Under the pieces are notes generated by a model that had not been told where the DNA came from, did no database searches, and saw nothing but the letters and a program-made list of their open reading frames with translations. A stretch of DNA of 64,000 bases from Escherichia coli (lineage in GTDB: Bacteria > Pseudomonadota > Gammaproteobacteria > Enterobacterales > Enterobacteriaceae): the NCBI RefSeq assembly GCF_013122565.1, contig NZ_CP053258.1, one strand, 5' to 3'. Position 1 is the first letter of the stretch; every line of letters begins with the position of its first letter. Shown here piece after piece: positions 13,625 to 50,730 of this stretch. A program made the position numbers and the translations under genes.

Positions 13625-13652
13625 CCCCGATTTGGGAGGCCTTATTGTTCGT
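13625..13652 (-). terminator. pheA attenuator terminator
   Basis: On minus strand AAGGCCTCCC-AAATC-GGGGGGCC followed by TTTTTT, between pheL stop (13690) and pheA start (13591). Confidence 0.65.
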
Positions 13653-13689
13653 CTTCGCATTCTGTTTCACACGACGAAACGCCTCCCAT

Positions 13690-13737
13690 TCAGGGGAAGG
13701 TAAAAAAGAATGCGAAGAAAAACGGTGTGTGTTTCAT
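13690..13737 (-). CDS. pheL: pheA operon leader peptide (15 aa, 7 Phe codons)
   Basis: Minus-strand ATG AAA CAC ACA CCG TTT TTC TTC GCA TTC TTT TTT ACC TTC CCC TGA = [15 protein letters not shown]. Below the ORF-track size cutoff. Confidence 0.8.
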   Translation of the reverse strand: [15 protein letters not shown]

Positions 13738-16305: not shown

Positions 16306-17033
16306 GTAAGCTGATTGTCCCGCAGTGGCCGCTGCCAAAAGGTGTTGCGGCCTGTAGCTCTACTCGTATCGGCGGCGTGAGCTTGCCCCCGTATGACTCG
16401 CTCAACCTCGGTGCTCATTGTGGCGATAATCCGGATCACGTTGAGGAGAATCGCAAGCGACTTTTTGCTGCGGGCAATTTGCCTTCTAAACCGGTCTGGC
16501 TTGAGCAGGTACACGGCAAAGATGTGCTTAAGCTTACTGGCGAACCTTATGCCTCAAAACGAGCAGATGCCTCTTATAGCAATACGCCCGGCACGGTTTG
16601 CGCAGTGATGACTGCCGACTGCCTCCCTGTGCTGTTTTGCAATCGAGCGGGAACGGAAGTCGCCGCCGCTCATGCTGGTTGGCGTGGACTGTGCGCAGGC
16701 GTGCTGGAAGAGACGGTTTCCTGTTTTGCTGATAATCCGGAAAATATTCTCGCCTGGTTAGGGCCGGCAATTGGTCCACGCGCGTTCGAAGTGGGGGCGG
16801 AGGTTCGCGAGGCGTTTATGGCAGCAGACGCCAAAGCGAGTACAGCTTTCATTCAGCATGGTGATAAGTATCTGGCAGATATTTATCAGCTTGCCCGGCA
16901 GCGTCTGGCGAGCGTTGGTGTTGAACAAATTTTCGGCGGCGACCGTTGTACATATACGGAAAATGAGACTTTCTTCTCTTATCGTCGCGACAAGACCACC
17001 GGTCGTATGGCAAGTTTCATTTGGCTGATATAA
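16302..17033 (+). CDS. pgeF: YfiH/PgeF family protein (purine nucleoside phosphorylase / laccase-like)
   Basis: 243-aa ORF; start overlaps rluD stop (ATGA). Confidence 0.9.
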   Translation: MSKLIVPQWPLPKGVAACSSTRIGGVSLPPYDSLNLGAHCGDNPDHVEENRKRLFAAGNLPSKPVWLEQVHGKDVLKLTGEPYASKRADASYSNTPGTVCAVMTADCLPVLFCNRAGTEVAAAHAGWRGLCAGVLEETVSCFADNPENILAWLGPAIGPRAFEVGAEVREAFMAADAKASTAFIQHGDKYLADIYQLARQRLASVGVEQIFGGDRCTYTENETFFSYRRDKTTGRMASFIWLI

Positions 17034-17095
17034 CCTAAAGAATCAAGACGATCCGGTACGCGTGATTTTCTTTTCACATTAATCTGGTCAATAAC

Positions 17096-17124
17096 CTTGA
17101 ATAATTGAGGGATGACCTCATTTA
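17096..17124 (+). promoter_or_regulatory. sigma32 heat-shock promoter of clpB
   Basis: CTTGAAT (17096-17102) and CCTCATTTA (17116-17124), 13-bp spacer, about 40 bp upstream of clpB ATG. Confidence 0.5.
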
Positions 17125-17162
17125 ATCTCCAGTAGCAACTTTGATCCGTTATGGGAGGAGTT

Positions 17163-19736
17163 ATGCGTCTGGATCGTCTTACTAATAAATTCCAGCTTGC
17201 TCTTGCCGATGCCCAATCACTTGCACTCGGGCACGACAACCAATTCATCGAACCACTTCATTTAATGAGCGCCCTGCTGAATCAGGAAGGGGGTTCGGTT
17301 AGTCCTTTGTTAACATCCGCTGGCATTAATGCTGGCCAGTTGCGCACAGATATCAATCAGGCATTAAATCGTTTACCGCAGGTTGAAGGTACTGGTGGTG
17401 ATGTCCAGCCATCACAAGATCTGGTGCGCGTTCTTAATCTTTGCGACAAGCTGGCGCAAAAACGTGGTGATAACTTTATCTCGTCAGAACTGTTCGTTCT
17501 GGCGGCACTTGAGTCTCGCGGCACGCTGGCCGACATCCTGAAAGCAGCAGGGGCGACCACCGCCAACATTACTCAAGCGATTGAACAAATGCGTGGAGGT
17601 GAAAGCGTGAACGATCAAGGTGCTGAAGACCAACGTCAGGCTTTGAAAAAATATACCATCGACCTTACCGAACGAGCCGAACAAGGCAAACTCGATCCGG
17701 TGATTGGTCGTGATGAAGAAATTCGCCGTACCATTCAGGTGCTGCAACGTCGTACTAAAAATAACCCGGTACTGATTGGTGAACCCGGCGTCGGTAAAAC
17801 TGCCATCGTTGAAGGTCTGGCGCAGCGTATTATCAACGGCGAAGTGCCGGAAGGGTTGAAAGGCCGCCGGGTACTGGCGCTGGATATGGGCGCGCTGGTG
17901 GCTGGGGCGAAATATCGCGGTGAGTTTGAAGAACGTTTAAAAGGCGTGCTTAACGATCTTGCCAAACAGGAAGGCAACGTCATCCTGTTTATCGACGAAT
18001 TACATACCATGGTCGGCGCGGGTAAAGCCGATGGCGCAATGGACGCCGGAAACATGCTGAAACCGGCGCTGGCGCGTGGTGAATTGCACTGCGTAGGTGC
18101 CACGACGCTTGACGAATATCGCCAGTACATCGAAAAAGATGCTGCGCTGGAACGTCGTTTCCAGAAAGTGTTTGTTGCCGAGCCTTCTGTTGAAGATACC
18201 ATTGCGATTCTGCGTGGCCTGAAAGAACGTTACGAATTGCACCACCATGTGCAAATTACTGACCCGGCAATTGTTGCAGCGGCGACGTTGTCTCATCGCT
18301 ACATTGCTGACCGTCAGCTGCCGGATAAAGCCATCGACCTGATCGATGAAGCAGCATCCAGCATTCGTATGCAGATTGACTCAAAACCAGAAGAACTCGA
18401 CCGACTCGATCGTCGTATCATCCAGCTCAAACTGGAACAACAGGCGTTAATGAAAGAGTCTGATGAAGCCAGTAAAAAACGCCTGGATATGCTCAACGAA
18501 GAACTGAGCGACAAAGAACGTCAGTACTCCGAGTTAGAAGAAGAGTGGAAAGCAGAGAAGGCATCGCTTTCTGGTACGCAGACCATTAAAGCGGAACTGG
18601 AACAGGCGAAAATCGCTATTGAACAGGCTCGCCGTGTGGGTGACCTGGCGCGGATGTCTGAACTGCAATACGGCAAAATCCCGGAACTGGAAAAGCAACT
18701 GGAAGCCGCAACGCAGCTCGAAGGCAAAACTATGCGTCTGTTGCGTAATAAAGTGACCGACGCCGAAATTGCTGAAGTGCTGGCGCGTTGGACGGGGATT
18801 CCGGTTTCTCGCATGATGGAAAGCGAGCGCGAAAAACTGCTGCGTATGGAGCAAGAACTGCACCATCGCGTAATTGGTCAGAACGAAGCGGTTGATGCGG
18901 TATCTAACGCTATTCGTCGTAGCCGTGCGGGGCTGGCGGATCCAAATCGCCCGATTGGTTCATTCCTGTTCCTCGGCCCAACTGGTGTGGGGAAAACAGA
19001 GCTTTGTAAGGCGCTGGCGAACTTTATGTTTGATAGCGACGAGGCGATGGTCCGTATCGATATGTCCGAGTTTATGGAGAAACACTCGGTGTCTCGTCTG
19101 GTTGGTGCGCCTCCGGGATATGTCGGTTATGAAGAAGGTGGCTACCTGACCGAAGCTGTGCGTCGTCGTCCGTATTCCGTCATCCTGCTGGATGAAGTGG
19201 AAAAAGCGCATCCGGATGTCTTCAATATTCTGTTGCAGGTACTGGATGATGGGCGTCTGACTGACGGGCAGGGGAGAACGGTCGACTTCCGTAATACGGT
19301 TGTCATTATGACCTCTAACCTCGGTTCCGATCTGATTCAGGAACGCTTCGGTGAACTGGATTATGCGCACATGAAAGAGCTGGTGCTCGGTGTGGTTAGC
19401 CATAACTTCCGTCCGGAATTCATTAACCGTATCGATGAAGTGGTGGTCTTCCATCCGCTGGGTGAACAGCACATTGCGTCGATTGCGCAGATTCAATTGA
19501 AACGTCTGTATAAACGTCTGGAAGAACGTGGTTATGAAATCCACATTTCTGACGAGGCGCTGAAACTGCTGAGCGAGAACGGTTACGATCCGGTCTATGG
19601 TGCACGTCCTCTGAAACGTGCAATTCAGCAGCAGATCGAAAACCCGCTGGCACAGCAAATACTGTCTGGTGAATTGGTTCCGGGTAAAGTGATTCGCCTG
19701 GAAGTTAATGAAGACCGGATTGTCGCCGTCCAGTAA
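17163..19736 (+). CDS. clpB: AAA+ disaggregase chaperone ClpB
   Basis: ORF track 17151..19736; ATG at 17163 after GGGAGGAG gives [19 protein letters not shown]..., 857 aa; two Walker A sites ([16 protein letters not shown]). Confidence 0.96.
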
Positions 19737-28639: not shown

Positions 28640-31300
28640 TCATGATTCCTCGCGTTGGGCAAGATTTAGCGTAAGCCCAACGATCCCCTCTTCGAGCTGG
28701 ATATCAACGTTAAACCCGAGCTTGCGGGCCAGCGCCACCATGCCACGATTATTTGGCATCGTAATACCATTCAGACGTTGTAGTCCGTGATCTCGCGTAT
28801 AGGTAATCAACTTTTCCATTAAGCGTCGACCTAAGCCTAACCCTTTGAGATCCGAGCGAACCAGCACGGCAAATTCGGCATCGATGTTATCAGGGTCGGA
28901 GATCGCACGCGTGACGCCGAGGATCTCTTCCGTTTGATCAATACGTCGTACCGCTACAAACGCCATTTCCCGATCGTAGTCGATCTGCGTCATGTTGGCT
29001 AAATCTTCATGGGTAAATTCGTTGATCTCGCTAAAGTAGCGGTAATAAAGATCTTCTTTGGTGACCCGCGAAATGAATTGCTGAAGTTGTGGCTCATCTT
29101 CTGGCAAAATCGGGCGGAACAAGCAGCGTTCACCGTTTTTCAATTCTACCCATTCTTCCAGCTGATGCGGATAAGGGCGCACTGCCAGCCGACTCTCGTT
29201 ATCGCCTTCAAACGGCGCGATATCCAGCGTGACATCCAGCGCGGTAAATTCACTGCCAGAAGCCAGCAAAGGATGAATATCCAGACGCTGAATTTCCGGG
29301 CAATCGACAATCAAGTTAGAAACCTGCACCAGAAGCTGGCTCAAGCCTGCAACATCTAATGGGCGTAGCGCACTGCGCGCACGAATCTTTTTACTTTTGA
29401 TCCCCTGAATAACCAGATAGCGGGCCAGGTTCATGTTCAGCGGCGGTAGTGCGACGACGGCTTGATCTTCAGGACGCCACTCCACACCGCCTTCGCCCAG
29501 CATGATCAACGGCCCGAAAACCGGATCGTGCTCAACCACAACCCGCAACTCCTGAGCGCCAGCACGGTTAGCCATACTTTGCACCAACAGGCCGTGGACC
29601 CGCGCCTGCGGCCAGGCCATTTTTACGCGATCGAAAATGGCGTTTGCCGCTTGCTGGACTTCATTGGCTGTACGCAGGTAGAGCATGACGCCCTGAACTT
29701 CCGATTTATGTGGAATATCCGGCGAACGCAATTTCAGCGCCACCGGATAACCAATCTGTTCGGCAATATGCACCGCTTCGGTGCTATCGCTGGCAATCCA
29801 GGTGGGGAGCGTGTTCATGCCATACGCTTGCAGGATGGGCTGAACTTCATGGGTATCGAGCGACGTAGCCCCTTCGGCAATCGCCTGTTGCAACAGAAGA
29901 TGCGCTTCTGCGGTATTAGAGGTCAGATTGCTGGGCAGCGCCGGCGTTTCGCGTAGTTGCTTCTGATTACGCCGGTACTCCACCATATGCATAAAAGCAG
30001 TGATGGTTCCTTCCGGGGTACGGTAGGTCGGTAGTCCGGCTTCACTGAATAATCGTCGTGCCTCTTGCGAGGAGTGCTCGCCGCACCAGTTCGTCAGCAA
30101 AGAGACATATTTGCTGCGGGGATGATGCTTTATCGCTTCAATTAATACTTGCGCGCTTTCTGTTGCGGGAGCAGCGGCGCTGGGCGAATGAATAACCATC
30201 AGCGCATCAAAATCCTGGCTGTGGAGCAGAATGTCCAGCGTTTTGACATAATGCTCGCTGCTGGCGTCATCTCGCAGATCGAGCGGGTTAGAGACTGCCA
30301 CATGTTCTGGCAGTGCGTCGCGCAGTTTCTGGCAGGTTTCTTCGCTTAGCGTTGCCAGCTTGCCATTGCGTGACCATAAGGCATCCAGCGCCAGCGCGGC
30401 AGGCGCAGCACCGTTGCTGATAATCATCAACCGGTCGCCACGCAGCGGGCGCATATGGCTAAGGGTTTCCACCGCCGAAAACAGCTCGTGGGTGTCCTGT
30501 ACCCGCAACAAACCGGCACGCTGAATAGCCGCATCCCACGCCGGATCCATTCCTGCCGTCGTGTTGAGCAGTCGCTGTGCCGCCGGGCTACGTCCGCTTT
30601 TAATCACCAGAATCGGTTTGTTGCGAGAGGCACTACGGGCCGCCGAAACAAAGCGTCGCGCGTCGCTTAACTGTTCGAGATAAAGCAGGATGGCGCTGGT
30701 TTTACTGTCGCGGGCCAGATAGTCGAGCAATTCATCAACGTCGATATCCAGGCTGTCGCCGAGCGCAATAAAGTAGGAAAAGCCCATCTCACGCTGTTGC
30801 GCCCAGTCGAGGATGGTGTTGGAGACGGCAGCCGATTGTGAAATAAACGCCAGCTTGCCGCGTTTAATCGGCACAGGCGAAAAGCTGGCATTCAGACCTT
30901 GCCAGGGAGCCAGTAAACCCAGACTGTTTGGTCCAAGCAGGCGCATGTTATGGCGCAGGGCGCAGGCGCGGAGATCTTCGTGTTGCGATGCCGGGGCGGA
31001 AAGAATAATGCAGGTTTTACAGCCTTTCTCGCCGAGCTCTTCCAGAAGAGCAAGATTACGGCTGGCATTGGTACATAAAACCGCAAGGTCGGGTGTAAAG
31101 GGCAAGCTGGCAATATCCGGCCAGGCCAACACACCCAACACCGCTTTCCAGGCTGGCGTCACCGGGAGTACCGGTCCGTTAAAGCCTCCCGCCAGCAGGT
31201 TACGCATCATCAGGTAACCTGCGCGATTGGGTTTCATCGATGCGCCAATTACCGCAATCGATTTTGGTCGCAGTAGTGCTTCCAGTCCTCGCTGACTCAT
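28640..31300 (-). CDS. patZ: protein lysine acetyltransferase PatZ/Pka (acyl-CoA synthetase-like N-terminal region plus C-terminal GNAT)
   Basis: 886-aa ORF recognised as YfiQ/PatZ; CoA-binding and ATP-grasp regions and C-terminal GNAT segment. Confidence 0.93.
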   Translation of the reverse strand: MSQRGLEALLRPKSIAVIGASMKPNRAGYLMMRNLLAGGFNGPVLPVTPAWKAVLGVLAWPDIASLPFTPDLAVLCTNASRNLALLEELGEKGCKTCIILSAPASQHEDLRACALRHNMRLLGPNSLGLLAPWQGLNASFSPVPIKRGKLAFISQSAAVSNTILDWAQQREMGFSYFIALGDSLDIDVDELLDYLARDSKTSAILLYLEQLSDARRFVSAARSASRNKPILVIKSGRSPAAQRLLNTTAGMDPAWDAAIQRAGLLRVQDTHELFSAVETLSHMRPLRGDRLMIISNGAAPAALALDALWSRNGKLATLSEETCQKLRDALPEHVAVSNPLDLRDDASSEHYVKTLDILLHSQDFDALMVIHSPSAAAPATESAQVLIEAIKHHPRSKYVSLLTNWCGEHSSQEARRLFSEAGLPTYRTPEGTITAFMHMVEYRRNQKQLRETPALPSNLTSNTAEAHLLLQQAIAEGATSLDTHEVQPILQAYGMNTLPTWIASDSTEAVHIAEQIGYPVALKLRSPDIPHKSEVQGVMLYLRTANEVQQAANAIFDRVKMAWPQARVHGLLVQSMANRAGAQELRVVVEHDPVFGPLIMLGEGGVEWRPEDQAVVALPPLNMNLARYLVIQGIKSKKIRARSALRPLDVAGLSQLLVQVSNLIVDCPEIQRLDIHPLLASGSEFTALDVTLDIAPFEGDNESRLAVRPYPHQLEEWVELKNGERCLFRPILPEDEPQLQQFISRVTKEDLYYRYFSEINEFTHEDLANMTQIDYDREMAFVAVRRIDQTEEILGVTRAISDPDNIDAEFAVLVRSDLKGLGLGRRLMEKLITYTRDHGLQRLNGITMPNNRGMVALARKLGFNVDIQLEEGIVGLTLNLAQREES

Positions 31301-46930: not shown

Positions 46931-46970
46931 TTCACGTTGTCGCCGTTATGGCGACAACGTGAATTATTTA
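46931..46970 (+). terminator. perfect 14-bp hairpin after lepB (probable lepA-lepB terminator)
   Basis: TTCACGTTGTCGCC-GTTAT-GGCGACAACGTGAA followed by TTATTTA. Confidence 0.5.
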
Positions 46971-47062: not shown

Positions 47063-47156
47063 GCACACGAAACAGCGTTGGTCCCCATATACCGGTAAAC
47101 TGAAACTGCAGCGAAGCAGTTAGCAGAACCATGTATATCAGGTCTGTTTCGTGTGC
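47063..47156 (+). promoter_or_regulatory. rnc 5' leader stem-loop (candidate RNase III autoregulatory processing site)
   Basis: GCACACGAAACAG (47063-47075) pairs with CTGTTTCGTGTGC (47144-47156), a 13-bp long-range stem enclosing about 68 nt, just upstream of rnc ATG at 47190. Confidence 0.5.
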
Positions 47157-47159
47157 TGA

Positions 47160-50635: not shown

Positions 50636-50654
50636 AAAAATACCGTTCTCTTTA

Positions 50655-50730
50655 TAAAGTAAAACCCCCGAACTGGTAAGGAACGGGGGTTTTACTTTAT
50701 TTTGTGCAGCACGCACCCTCAATGAGGATA
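50655..50730 (-). ncRNA. ohsC: candidate OhsC antitoxin sRNA (antisense regulator of shoB); boundaries approximate
   Basis: Minus-strand RNA from about 50725 to the terminator at 50661-50693 would carry the complement of 50704-50725, which is a near-copy of 50951-50972 in the shoB 5' UTR (19/22 identical; two differences become G-U pairs). Candidate -10 CATAAT (plus 50731-50736) and -35 TTGTAA (plus 50755-50760) on minus strand. Confidence 0.45.
50661..50699. terminator. bidirectional rho-independent terminator (acpS operon on plus strand; likely also ohsC on minus strand)
   Basis: AAAACCCCCG-13-nt loop-CGGGGGTTTT, flanked by T-runs on both strands. Confidence 0.6.

Follow-up and report, generated by a model that had tools for sequence, protein, structure and literature searches.

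The inverted repeat at the 5′ end of clpB in the window, a 64-kb stretch of Escherichia coli DNA, is very probably the outermost 10–12 bp of the terminal helix that closes RyfD, a known small RNA (Rfam RF02768). The feature is already known and ordinary, and not a new antisense or DNA element. RyfD, 143 nt in length, occupies positions 17041–17183 on the plus strand, which is the strand of clpB, and is placed there by the K-12 annotation, by Rfam and by a Term-seq 3′ end. In K-12, ryfD (b4609) is annotated at 2734153..2734295 on the minus strand, again that of clpB, and these coordinates convert to window positions 17041–17183. The preliminary description had mentioned a small RNA of this name near the clpB 5′ end, which was correct, and the look-up of coordinates and strand that it had proposed placed RyfD over the repeat interval on the clpB strand. 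The region from −132 to +24 relative to clpB is identical to that of K-12, and the RNA encoded in the window is E. coli RyfD itself. Of 5426 E. coli genomes, 5425 carry the RyfD region with an identity of at least 99%. The locus lies between yfiH/pgeF and clpB, sense to clpB, and overlaps the first clpB codons: RyfD starts 8 nt past the yfiH stop codon (TAA 17031–17033) and ends 21 nt inside clpB, the coding sequence of which runs from 17163 to 19736 on the plus strand (the start was verified and the end derived from the length of the K-12 gene).

An Rfam search matched the RF02768 model (Ysr155_RyfD) over its full extent (positions 1–140 of 140) on the plus strand at 17044–17182 (E 1.1e-28), and the consensus closing helix of the family corresponds to the repeat arms. 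The score of 125.3 bits, to be read against the curated gathering score of 42 bits that served as membership threshold, partly reflects promoter conservation, the centre of the model being the sigma32 promoter and clpB 5′UTR, which are conserved even without the arms. On the minus strand of the locus the search gave no match. A discrete RNA of about 140 nt transcribed from the clpB strand is supported by a published Term-seq 3′ end and by the northern-validated Ysr155 of Yersinia. In the portion of the Term-seq data of Adams et al. (2021) that covers this neighbourhood, the dominant 3′ end and top score fall at 2734153(−), which is window position 17183 on the clpB strand, and this end is classed as ‘primary ryfD / internal clpB’. 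Ysr155/RyfD of Yersinia is constitutive and sense to clpB (‘y0913 > / > / clpB >’). In E. coli and Salmonella, RyfD is described as an abundant ProQ-associated sRNA; it is also described as Hfq-independent, with overexpression phenotypes and specific RNA partners (lpp and RaiZ). The 5′ end at 17041 is annotation-based, since the Cappable-seq supplements contain no coordinates close to the ryfD locus.

The repeat had been described as an 11-bp inverted repeat with one mismatch. Both arms and the mismatch stand, while the true coordinates lie 1 nt to the left of those first given: the upstream 11-mer AGACGATCCGG is at 17046–17056 and its near-perfect reverse complement CTGGATCGTCT at 17169–17179. 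A perfect 10-nt core is formed by AAGACGATCC (17045–17054) and GGATCGTCTT (17171–17180), and when paired as RNA the repeat amounts to 12 bp (17045–17056 with 17169–17180), one G·U included. The 5′ arm (plus strand) contains RNAalifold consensus pairs 1–11 in an alignment of 54 species, and the 3′ arm, likewise on the plus strand, is clpB codons 3–6 (CTG GAT CGT CTT). It was also borne out that the arms flank a sigma32-type promoter (17096–17123) and the clpB start codon (ATG 17163–17165). Considered alone, the repeat could be due to chance: counting distinct perfect 10-nt inverted repeats whose arms lie at most 150 nt apart, we obtained 18 in the window, against 9.1 ± 2.1 in Markov-1 simulations. 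It is raised above chance by its extension to 23 bp in E. coli, its conservation in 57 species and the Rfam match (E = 1e-28). What was first noticed covers a third to a half of the full helix, at its outer end.

In the MFE structure, the E. coli helix is 23 bp long (17045–17068 with 17158–17180), and its inner part pairs 17058–17068 with 17158–17168. The inner 5′ strand on the plus strand (17058–17076, ACGCGTGATTT plus TCTTTTCA) is complementary to clpB codon 2, AUG, spacer and Shine-Dalgarno (SD) sequence. Its partner, the inner 3′ strand, is the clpB translation-initiation region (17153–17168, plus strand), which comprises the SD GGGAGGAG at 17153–17160, the ATG and codon 2. Duplex prediction lengthens the inner helix to the entire SD, and the duplex then has about −38 kcal/mol across about 29 nt.

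Looking across species, we found the upstream arm at −113 to −128 in 57 of 120 clpB loci, all of them from Enterobacterales (57 species). The helix was aligned with MAFFT and RNAalifold in 54 species, in which both arms aligned unambiguously; one locus (Aliidiomarina), which had met the energy cut-off because of pairing to coding sequence at the 3′ end of yfiH, was removed by hand. The long-range helix measures 20–32 bp in these species, and its outer part is paired in 590 of 594 alignment cells (99.3%). Two outer-helix pairs carry compensatory changes, each tied to a synonymous clpB codon change: in Tatumella the pair A-U is replaced by U-A (codon CTT to CTA), and in Erwinia psidii A-U is replaced by G-C (codon GAT to GAC). 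Such double changes are few, these two probably being independent events. When compared with shuffles, the inner helix by itself reaches significance in 38 of the 54 species, sequence turnover notwithstanding. An internal hairpin of the Rfam consensus, GAGG-GAUGA-CCUC (17106–17120, plus strand), which was flagged as terminator-like and overlaps the sigma32 spacer and −10 element, has one compensatory pair, G-C to A-U, in four species. The comparison supports a terminal helix linking the 5′ and 3′ ends of RyfD, as in a member of this family.

The preliminary description had reasoned that the sigma32-initiated clpB mRNA carries the downstream arm only, which is correct, and that the arms could pair only in DNA or in a transcript of the opposite strand, which is wrong: RyfD is a clpB-strand RNA whose 5′ end precedes the sigma32 promoter, and it therefore contains both arms. 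Pairing of the arms in a minus-strand transcript, for instance a cis-antisense RNA covering the start and promoter of clpB, or their extrusion as a DNA cruciform is accordingly largely refuted, and we regard it as highly improbable. Extrusion of a cruciform is kinetically implausible when a spacer of 112 nt separates the arms. The minus strand does fold better than shuffles (−42.1 kcal/mol, z −5.0, as against −52 kcal/mol, z −5.8, for the plus strand), and the reverse complement of any structured RNA likewise does so. Against the minus strand, the Rfam match is confined to the plus strand, and both the annotation and the Yersinia mapping put the RNA on the clpB strand, as does the dominant Term-seq 3′ end; the Term-seq listing for the interval 2731408–2736152 contains no 3′ end on the opposite strand. 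The substitutions point the same way. Among the 594 outer-helix cells (11 pairs in 54 species), 54 pair on the plus strand only, being G·U there but mismatched (C·A) in DNA or on the minus strand. None shows the reverse A·C pattern; the G·U count is somewhat biased by the choice of species by plus-strand duplex energy. Watson-Crick pairing is thus not kept on the minus strand, and the 54 G·U against 0 A·C cells argue for pairing in plus-strand RNA. As read from the alignment, the helix is kept by G·U-preserving and compensatory substitutions that fit plus-strand RNA alone.

There is scarcely any prospect, either, that the repeat is a functionless accident whose conservation stems from the clpB coding sequence and promoter alone, even though its 3′ arm is coding, its centre is a promoter and about nine perfect 10-nt repeats of this kind are expected per 64 kb. 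The non-coding 5′ arm is still paired in nearly all cells and its changes preserve pairing, and the inner strand keeps its complementarity despite sequence turnover; these two observations rule out a chance repeat. In addition, the frozen synonymous sites of clpB coincide exactly with the helix, and codons drift where the arm has been lost. Synonymous sites of clpB codons 2–6 are nearly invariant (0–0.22 bits), and variation rises to 1.15 bits at the end of the helix, in codon 7. In lineages without the upstream arm, drift is seen at the two Leu codons (Fisher p 3e-4 and 5e-6, for species that are not phylogenetically independent), and Klebsiella sp. BIGb0407, which has lost the arm, has the codons GAC CGC. 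Codons 2, 4 and 5 are fairly conserved also without the arm, so that it is chiefly the two Leu codons that carry the argument from synonymous sites.

The clpB heat-shock promoter is nested within RyfD. The sigma32 consensus is CTTGAA / CCCCATNT, and the sequence CTTGAA-N14-CCTCATTT at 17096–17123 (plus strand) was the sole match to it in a scan of the window, where 0.02 were expected; it is invariant or nearly so across the 54 species. Transcription of clpB from it would start at about 17129–17132. For RyfD itself, a candidate promoter with an extended −10 element, TGaTATAAC, was read by eye at 17026–17034 on the plus strand. It overlaps the final yfiH codons and stop, and the annotated 5′ end of RyfD lies 7 nt downstream. 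The element, including a rare ATA codon, is conserved in the 54 species, with TATAAT in Tatumella and Acerihabitans. A sigma70 consensus scan of 16700–17400 called no promoter; it missed TGaTATAAC because the final base is C.

This arrangement suggests a second role for the helix. Besides its presumed role of closing and stabilizing the ProQ-associated RyfD, it would make the start codon and ribosome-binding site of clpB inaccessible in transcripts begun upstream of the nested sigma32 promoter. Both arms would occur only in such transcripts, whether from RyfD's own start or from rluD-yfiH read-through, and the clpB start site would be locked in them, while heat-shock transcripts from the nested promoter would lack the 5′ arm and be translatable. 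The long-range helix includes the AUG in 38 of the 54 species and the SD in 53. For transcripts starting at 17041 or inside yfiH, the predicted probability that the AUG is unpaired is 0.02, compared with 0.5–0.6 from the sigma32 start. The SD is predicted to be mostly paired even in the short sigma32 transcript (probability unpaired about 0.2), so that any predicted difference in translation comes from the AUG and codons 2–6. An additional action of the helix in cis on clpB translation has a chance that comes close to even. Somewhat less likely, yet a reading we take seriously, is a dual-purpose helix that would end and translationally silence all upstream transcription into clpB, making ClpB strictly sigma32-dependent.

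We found no description of such a dual-purpose or fold-back role for RyfD or clpB in the accessible literature. A precedent reportedly exists in the work of Davis, Simons and Kleckner in 1985, in which fold-back inhibits translation of the IS10/IS50 transposase in read-through transcripts. In IS10/IS50, the arms flank a native promoter, outside transcripts carry both of them and sequester the start site, and transcripts from the internal promoter have the 3′ arm only and are translated; at clpB a matching geometry is seen in the strands 17045–17076 and 17153–17180, the latter over the translation-initiation region, with the sigma32 motif (17096–17123) between them. Unlike in IS10/IS50, the long transcript is itself a conserved sRNA that is abundant, bound by protein and likely to have targets in trans, and the insulation of clpB is a prediction. 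If the dual role were true, the RyfD helix would be a conserved chromosomal analogue of IS10 fold-back inhibition.

The same helix could instead serve primarily in cis, separating clpB from the rluD-yfiH operon as an insulator or terminator that halts or silences incoming transcription before ClpB can be made, with RyfD mainly a stable by-product. This is compatible with, and not exclusive of, the explanation as a closing helix of RyfD. At either side, the annotated or mapped end of RyfD sits 3–4 nt beyond the helix. Termination during helix zipping, or 3′ trimming back to the helix base, could define the 3′ end at 17183. A terminator scan for compact GC-rich hairpins (3–8 nt loop) followed by a U-tract found none ending near 17183 and none between yfiH and clpB; the interval thus contains no canonical terminator, which counts in favour of this reading. 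The sole likeness to an intrinsic terminator is the long-range helix itself, the GC-rich core of which extends to 17176, 7 nt before the 3′ end, and is followed by UCUUACU up to 17183. Sequestration of the clpB start site in all 54 species and the predicted accessibility contrast also favour insulation. Trans function is argued for by the abundance of RyfD, its binding to ProQ, its partners lpp and RaiZ, its overexpression phenotypes and an invariant lpp-complementary segment. Further points against an insulator or terminator are that RepRanger lists no REP or RIT (the labels of that paper) in ryfD, and that the Rho score at the RyfD 3′ end in the Term-seq data is just 1.28. On balance, we consider it unlikely that insulation or termination is the primary role, though this reading is the strongest of those weighed against the closing helix.

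Two further roles would exploit the length or the position of the duplex. The length of near-perfect dsRNA present here, 23–32 bp, would suffice for RNase III, and the helix might be a processing site at which yfiH-clpB read-through is cut. This is improbable: the ends of RyfD lie outside the helix on both sides, whereas RNase III would leave staggered cuts inside it, and the abundant mature RNA keeps the helix intact. An RNA thermometer of the ROSE or fourU type, masking the clpB SD and AUG at low temperature and melting on heat shock, is suggested by the paired SD and AUG of a heat-shock gene. It is highly improbable, and we rejected it. A duplex of this stability is far too stable for melting at 42–50 °C, the heat-induced sigma32 mRNA entirely lacks the 5′ arm, and RyfD levels in Yersinia are independent of temperature.

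As the closing helix of RyfD, the repeat forms the scaffold of the molecule, and the trans-acting part is probably the internal segment UUAAUCUCCAGUAGC (17122–17136, plus strand), not the repeat itself. This candidate seed is nearly invariant and complementary to nucleotides 1–16 of the lpp mRNA. The predicted duplex has −24.2 kcal/mol compared with −10.0 ± 2.4 for shuffles, none of 1000 shuffles being as good; these values come from a windowed analysis, whole-length RNAduplex having produced unrealistic giant-loop structures. A TRIC-seq preprint reports that RyfD pairs with the lpp 5′UTR.

RyfD resembles the ProQ/FinO-class sRNAs (such as RaiZ, SibA and FinP) in being Hfq-independent, highly structured, ProQ-bound and abundant. 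Most members of that class end in a compact intrinsic terminator hairpin, whereas RyfD is closed as a whole by a long-range helix at its ends. Among the Term-seq classes of Adams et al. (2021), sRNAs that overlap mRNA 5′ ends share with RyfD a sense orientation and a 3′ end inside an ORF. Unlike them, RyfD starts upstream of the clpB promoter and embeds it, and is not a truncated clpB mRNA.

In itself, the finding has little importance, since it recovers the terminal stem of an sRNA that was already catalogued. What is added here, descriptively, is the reach of the helix over the clpB SD and AUG, the strand-specific substitutions and the synonymous-site constraint. Since RyfD has no established function, the distinction between scaffold (the helix) and likely seed (17122–17136) should aid the design of experiments. 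The comparison also gives clear evidence that RNA pairing, and not protein or codon usage, constrains five codons of clpB. Finally, it offers a testable idea: the closing helix may shield the translation of clpB from transcription that enters from upstream, and the nested heat-shock promoter alone would then yield translatable mRNA.

We scanned positions 16500-17700 on both strands against Rfam and obtained a single strong hit: on the plus strand, RF02768 (Ysr155_RyfD) aligns to 17044-17182 (125.3 bits, E 1.1e-28; gathering score 42 bits) over its full length, model positions 1-140 of 140. The arms of the inverted repeat around the clpB promoter form, in the Rfam alignment, the outermost consensus helix of this family. 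The region is 100% identical to many E. coli strains and, from -132 to +24, identical to K-12, where the ncRNA ryfD (b4609) is annotated at 2734153..2734295 on the clpB strand. This interval corresponds to window 17041-17183 and overlaps the first 21 nt of clpB, so that the small RNA mentioned near the clpB 5' end in the preliminary description is indeed there. The repeat is a real feature and an already known one: it forms the stem that closes RyfD, an RNA encoded on the clpB strand. Of 5426 complete E. coli genomes, 5425 carry the 143-nt region at 99% identity or more; with a 401-nt query that took in the flanks, identity dropped to 95-99% in 841 genomes. Among the records examined, ryfD is annotated solely in that of K-12. 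The listed E. coli RefSeq records (H1-H22) carry clpB and yfiH alone under the match, so their annotation lacks RyfD despite the identity of at least 99%.

Sequence checks located the 11-mer AGACGATCCGG at 17046-17056 and CTGGATCGTCT, its reverse complement with one mismatch, at 17169-17179. The one-mismatch repeat is thus present as described, one base further left than first placed. Its perfect core is 10 nt (17045-17054/17171-17180), and as RNA the arms form 12 bp with one G.U allowed (17045-17056/17169-17180). As claimed, they flank the clpB promoter and start: the sigma32-type motif CTTGAA-N14-CCTCATTT (17096-17123), which occurs once in the window where 0.02 matches are expected, and the ATG (17163-17165) both lie in between, and clpB codons 3-6 make up the 3' arm. 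When folded, plus-strand RNA 17044-17182 reached -52 kcal/mol (z = -5.8) and contained an uninterrupted long-range helix of 23 bp (17045-17056 and 17058-17068 with 17158-17180). This helix is longer than the repeat originally reported and takes in the end of the SD, the start codon and codons 2-6. As a two-strand duplex, the upstream strand 17044-17076 and the whole initiation region GGGAGGAGUUAUGCGUCUGGAUCGUCUUA gave -38.3 kcal/mol.

We then searched one genome per species with the clpB N-terminal codons, leaving all wobble positions free. Of the 120 clpB loci returned (Enterobacterales, Vibrionales, Aeromonadales and Alteromonadales), 57 species carry an upstream arm at -113 to -128 that pairs with codons 2-6. 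They belong to Enterobacteriaceae, Erwiniaceae, Pectobacteriaceae and Yersiniaceae, plus Photorhabdus and Xenorhabdus. No arm was found upstream of clpB at the loci from Providencia, Morganella, Moellerella, Hafnia, Edwardsiella, Budvicia, Rosenbergiella, Orbaceae, Vibrio, Aeromonas or Pseudoalteromonas. Several armless lineages retain the UCUCCAG(U/A)AGCA segment in large part, along with the sigma32 promoter. The RF02768 centre therefore owes its conservation to being promoter and 5'UTR; what is specific to the RNA is the outer helix. Klebsiella sp. BIGb0407 (L022 3002-3170) scores 53.7 bits, above the gathering score, yet has no 5' arm. Its match stems from the conserved promoter and 5'UTR core, and RF02768 matches can therefore flag the clpB promoter without a RyfD-type RNA. 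In many Enterobacterales and one Vibrio (loci L004, L007, L022, L025, L031, L053, L084, L099 and L114), Phe leader matches (RF01859, the pheL attenuator) occur a few kb away from clpB, a conserved synteny between clpB and the pheA region; L053 starts within a 16S rRNA gene.

Aligning the 54 distinct arm-bearing sequences with MAFFT and deriving a consensus structure with RNAalifold recovered the outer helix, with 99.3% of its cells paired; a shift of the partner strand by 1-3 columns lowered pairing to 37-54%. All outer-helix substitutions preserve pairing. In the non-coding 5' arm, A-to-G changes yield G.U, and two pairs show double changes linked to synonymous codon changes: A-U to U-A in Tatumella, with Leu6 CTT to CTA, and A-U to G-C in Erwinia psidii, with Asp4 GAT to GAC and G.U intermediates in six other species. 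Synonymous codon entropy in arm-bearing species is 0-0.22 bits at codons 2-6; codon 7, which lies just beyond the helix, has 1.15 bits, and other Leu codons among the first 40 have 0.8-2.3 bits. In 11 armless Enterobacterales, Leu3 and Leu6 drift to 1.32 and 1.69 bits (Fisher p 3e-4 and 5e-6, uncorrected for phylogeny), and in Klebsiella sp. BIGb0407, which lost the arm and kept the promoter, codons 4-5 read GAC CGC. The inner 5' strand is poorly conserved in sequence. Taken alone, it nevertheless beats shuffles in complementarity to SD-AUG-codon 2 in 38/54 species (mean -14.7 versus -8.6 kcal/mol). Per-species folds gave 20-32 long-range pairs in every case (mean 27.6), with the AUG fully paired to the 5' strand in 38/54 and the SD paired in 53/54. 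These data show the repeat to belong to a conserved helix of plus-strand RNA that closes RyfD.

Published data and the K-12 annotation place the RNA ends just outside this helix. Term-seq in K-12 maps a 3' end to 2734153 on the minus strand, window 17183, labelled 'primary ryfD / internal clpB' (Adams et al. 2021, PMC7815308, supplementary file 1). The two scores shown are 2.6e7 and 7.4e7, neighbouring entries are orders of magnitude lower, and the Rho score is only 1.28 (PMC7815308). We found no canonical terminator for this 3' end. The mapped ends lie 3-4 nt beyond the helix. In Y. pestis, Ysr155/RyfD is sense to clpB, validated by northern blot and expressed independently of temperature and hfq. 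The literature describes RyfD as abundant and ProQ-associated in E. coli and Salmonella, and also as Hfq-independent, its overexpression affecting biofilm formation and swarming; SEC-seq found no obvious ORF and did not support ribosome association.

Could the repeat have arisen by chance? Markov-1 simulations yield 9.1 +/- 2.1 perfect 10-nt inverted repeats with a gap of at most 150 nt, and the window contains 18 distinct ones; a repeat of this size, taken alone, is not remarkable. Conservation of arm pairing and of inner-helix complementarity rules chance out. (The same count returned perfect repeats of 12-17 nt at 13652-13720, 30504-30626, 46931-46964, 47063-47157 and 50654-50701, probably terminators or REP-like elements.) The preliminary description had allowed pairing only in an opposite-strand transcript or in DNA. 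The minus strand does fold, more weakly (-42 kcal/mol), but K-12 ryfD and the RF02768 match sit on the clpB strand. Among 594 outer-helix cells (one pair position in one species), 54 pair on the plus strand only, as G.U or U.G, and none on the minus only; choosing species by plus-strand duplex energy biases this count somewhat, although one mismatch would not have led to exclusion, and the Enterobacterales left out are without the arm altogether. On the minus strand or in a cruciform, each of the 54 cells would become a C.A mismatch; on this ground, together with the plus-strand match, the K-12 and Yersinia strand and Term-seq, we reject both. We also reject an RNase III site, since RyfD ends fall outside the helix, and an RNA thermometer, since the helix is far too stable and is missing from heat-shock mRNA.

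Within the end of yfiH we noted a candidate RyfD promoter (17007-17041), with -35-like ATGGCA (17007-17012), a 16-nt spacer and extended -10 TGaTATAAC (17026-17034), 7 nt before the annotated 5' end at 17041. The promoter consensus scan did not call TGaTATAAC. The motif is kept in the 54 species, down to its rare Ile codon ATA and the CCTA after the stop, and the -10 reads TATAAT in Tatumella and Acerihabitans. The hairpin GAGG-GAUGA-CCUC (17106-17120) overlaps the sigma32 promoter spacer and -10 element; compensatory G-C to A-U changes in Xenorhabdus, a related MAG and Acerihabitans suggest RNA structure under selection within promoter DNA. A nearly invariant segment, UUAAUCUCCAGUAGC (17122-17136), is complementary to lpp mRNA nt 1-16: the K-12 5' end GCUACAUGGAGAUUAA (lpp locus L122, 84-99) matches its complement with one bulged A (dG -24.2 kcal/mol; 0/1000 shuffles as good). 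This fits a 2025 TRIC-seq preprint in which RyfD pairs with the lpp 5'UTR. For E. coli, the predicted structure pairs most of this segment with the clpB SD. Elsewhere, in most species, the predicted partner of the SD is the far-upstream strand, which would leave the lpp-complementary segment free.

We consider it likely that the helix sets and protects both RyfD ends and supplies the duplex-plus-tail recognised by ProQ-type proteins. The 3' end could form by termination as the helix zips, the GC-rich core ending at 17176 and followed by UCUUACU, or alternatively by exonucleolytic trimming back to the helix base. A second role, in cis on clpB, has at best nearly even chances. Because the sigma32 promoter lies between the strands, only upstream-initiated transcripts contain both. 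In these, the AUG and codons 2-6 have a predicted P(unpaired) of 0.02; for starts near 17129-17132, the sigma32 start deduced from the motif, it is 0.5-0.6. The arrangement at RyfD/clpB corresponds to that of IS10 fold-back inhibition, with a promoter placed between the strands. We propose that the helix may insulate clpB translation, the sole part of this picture that is possibly new.
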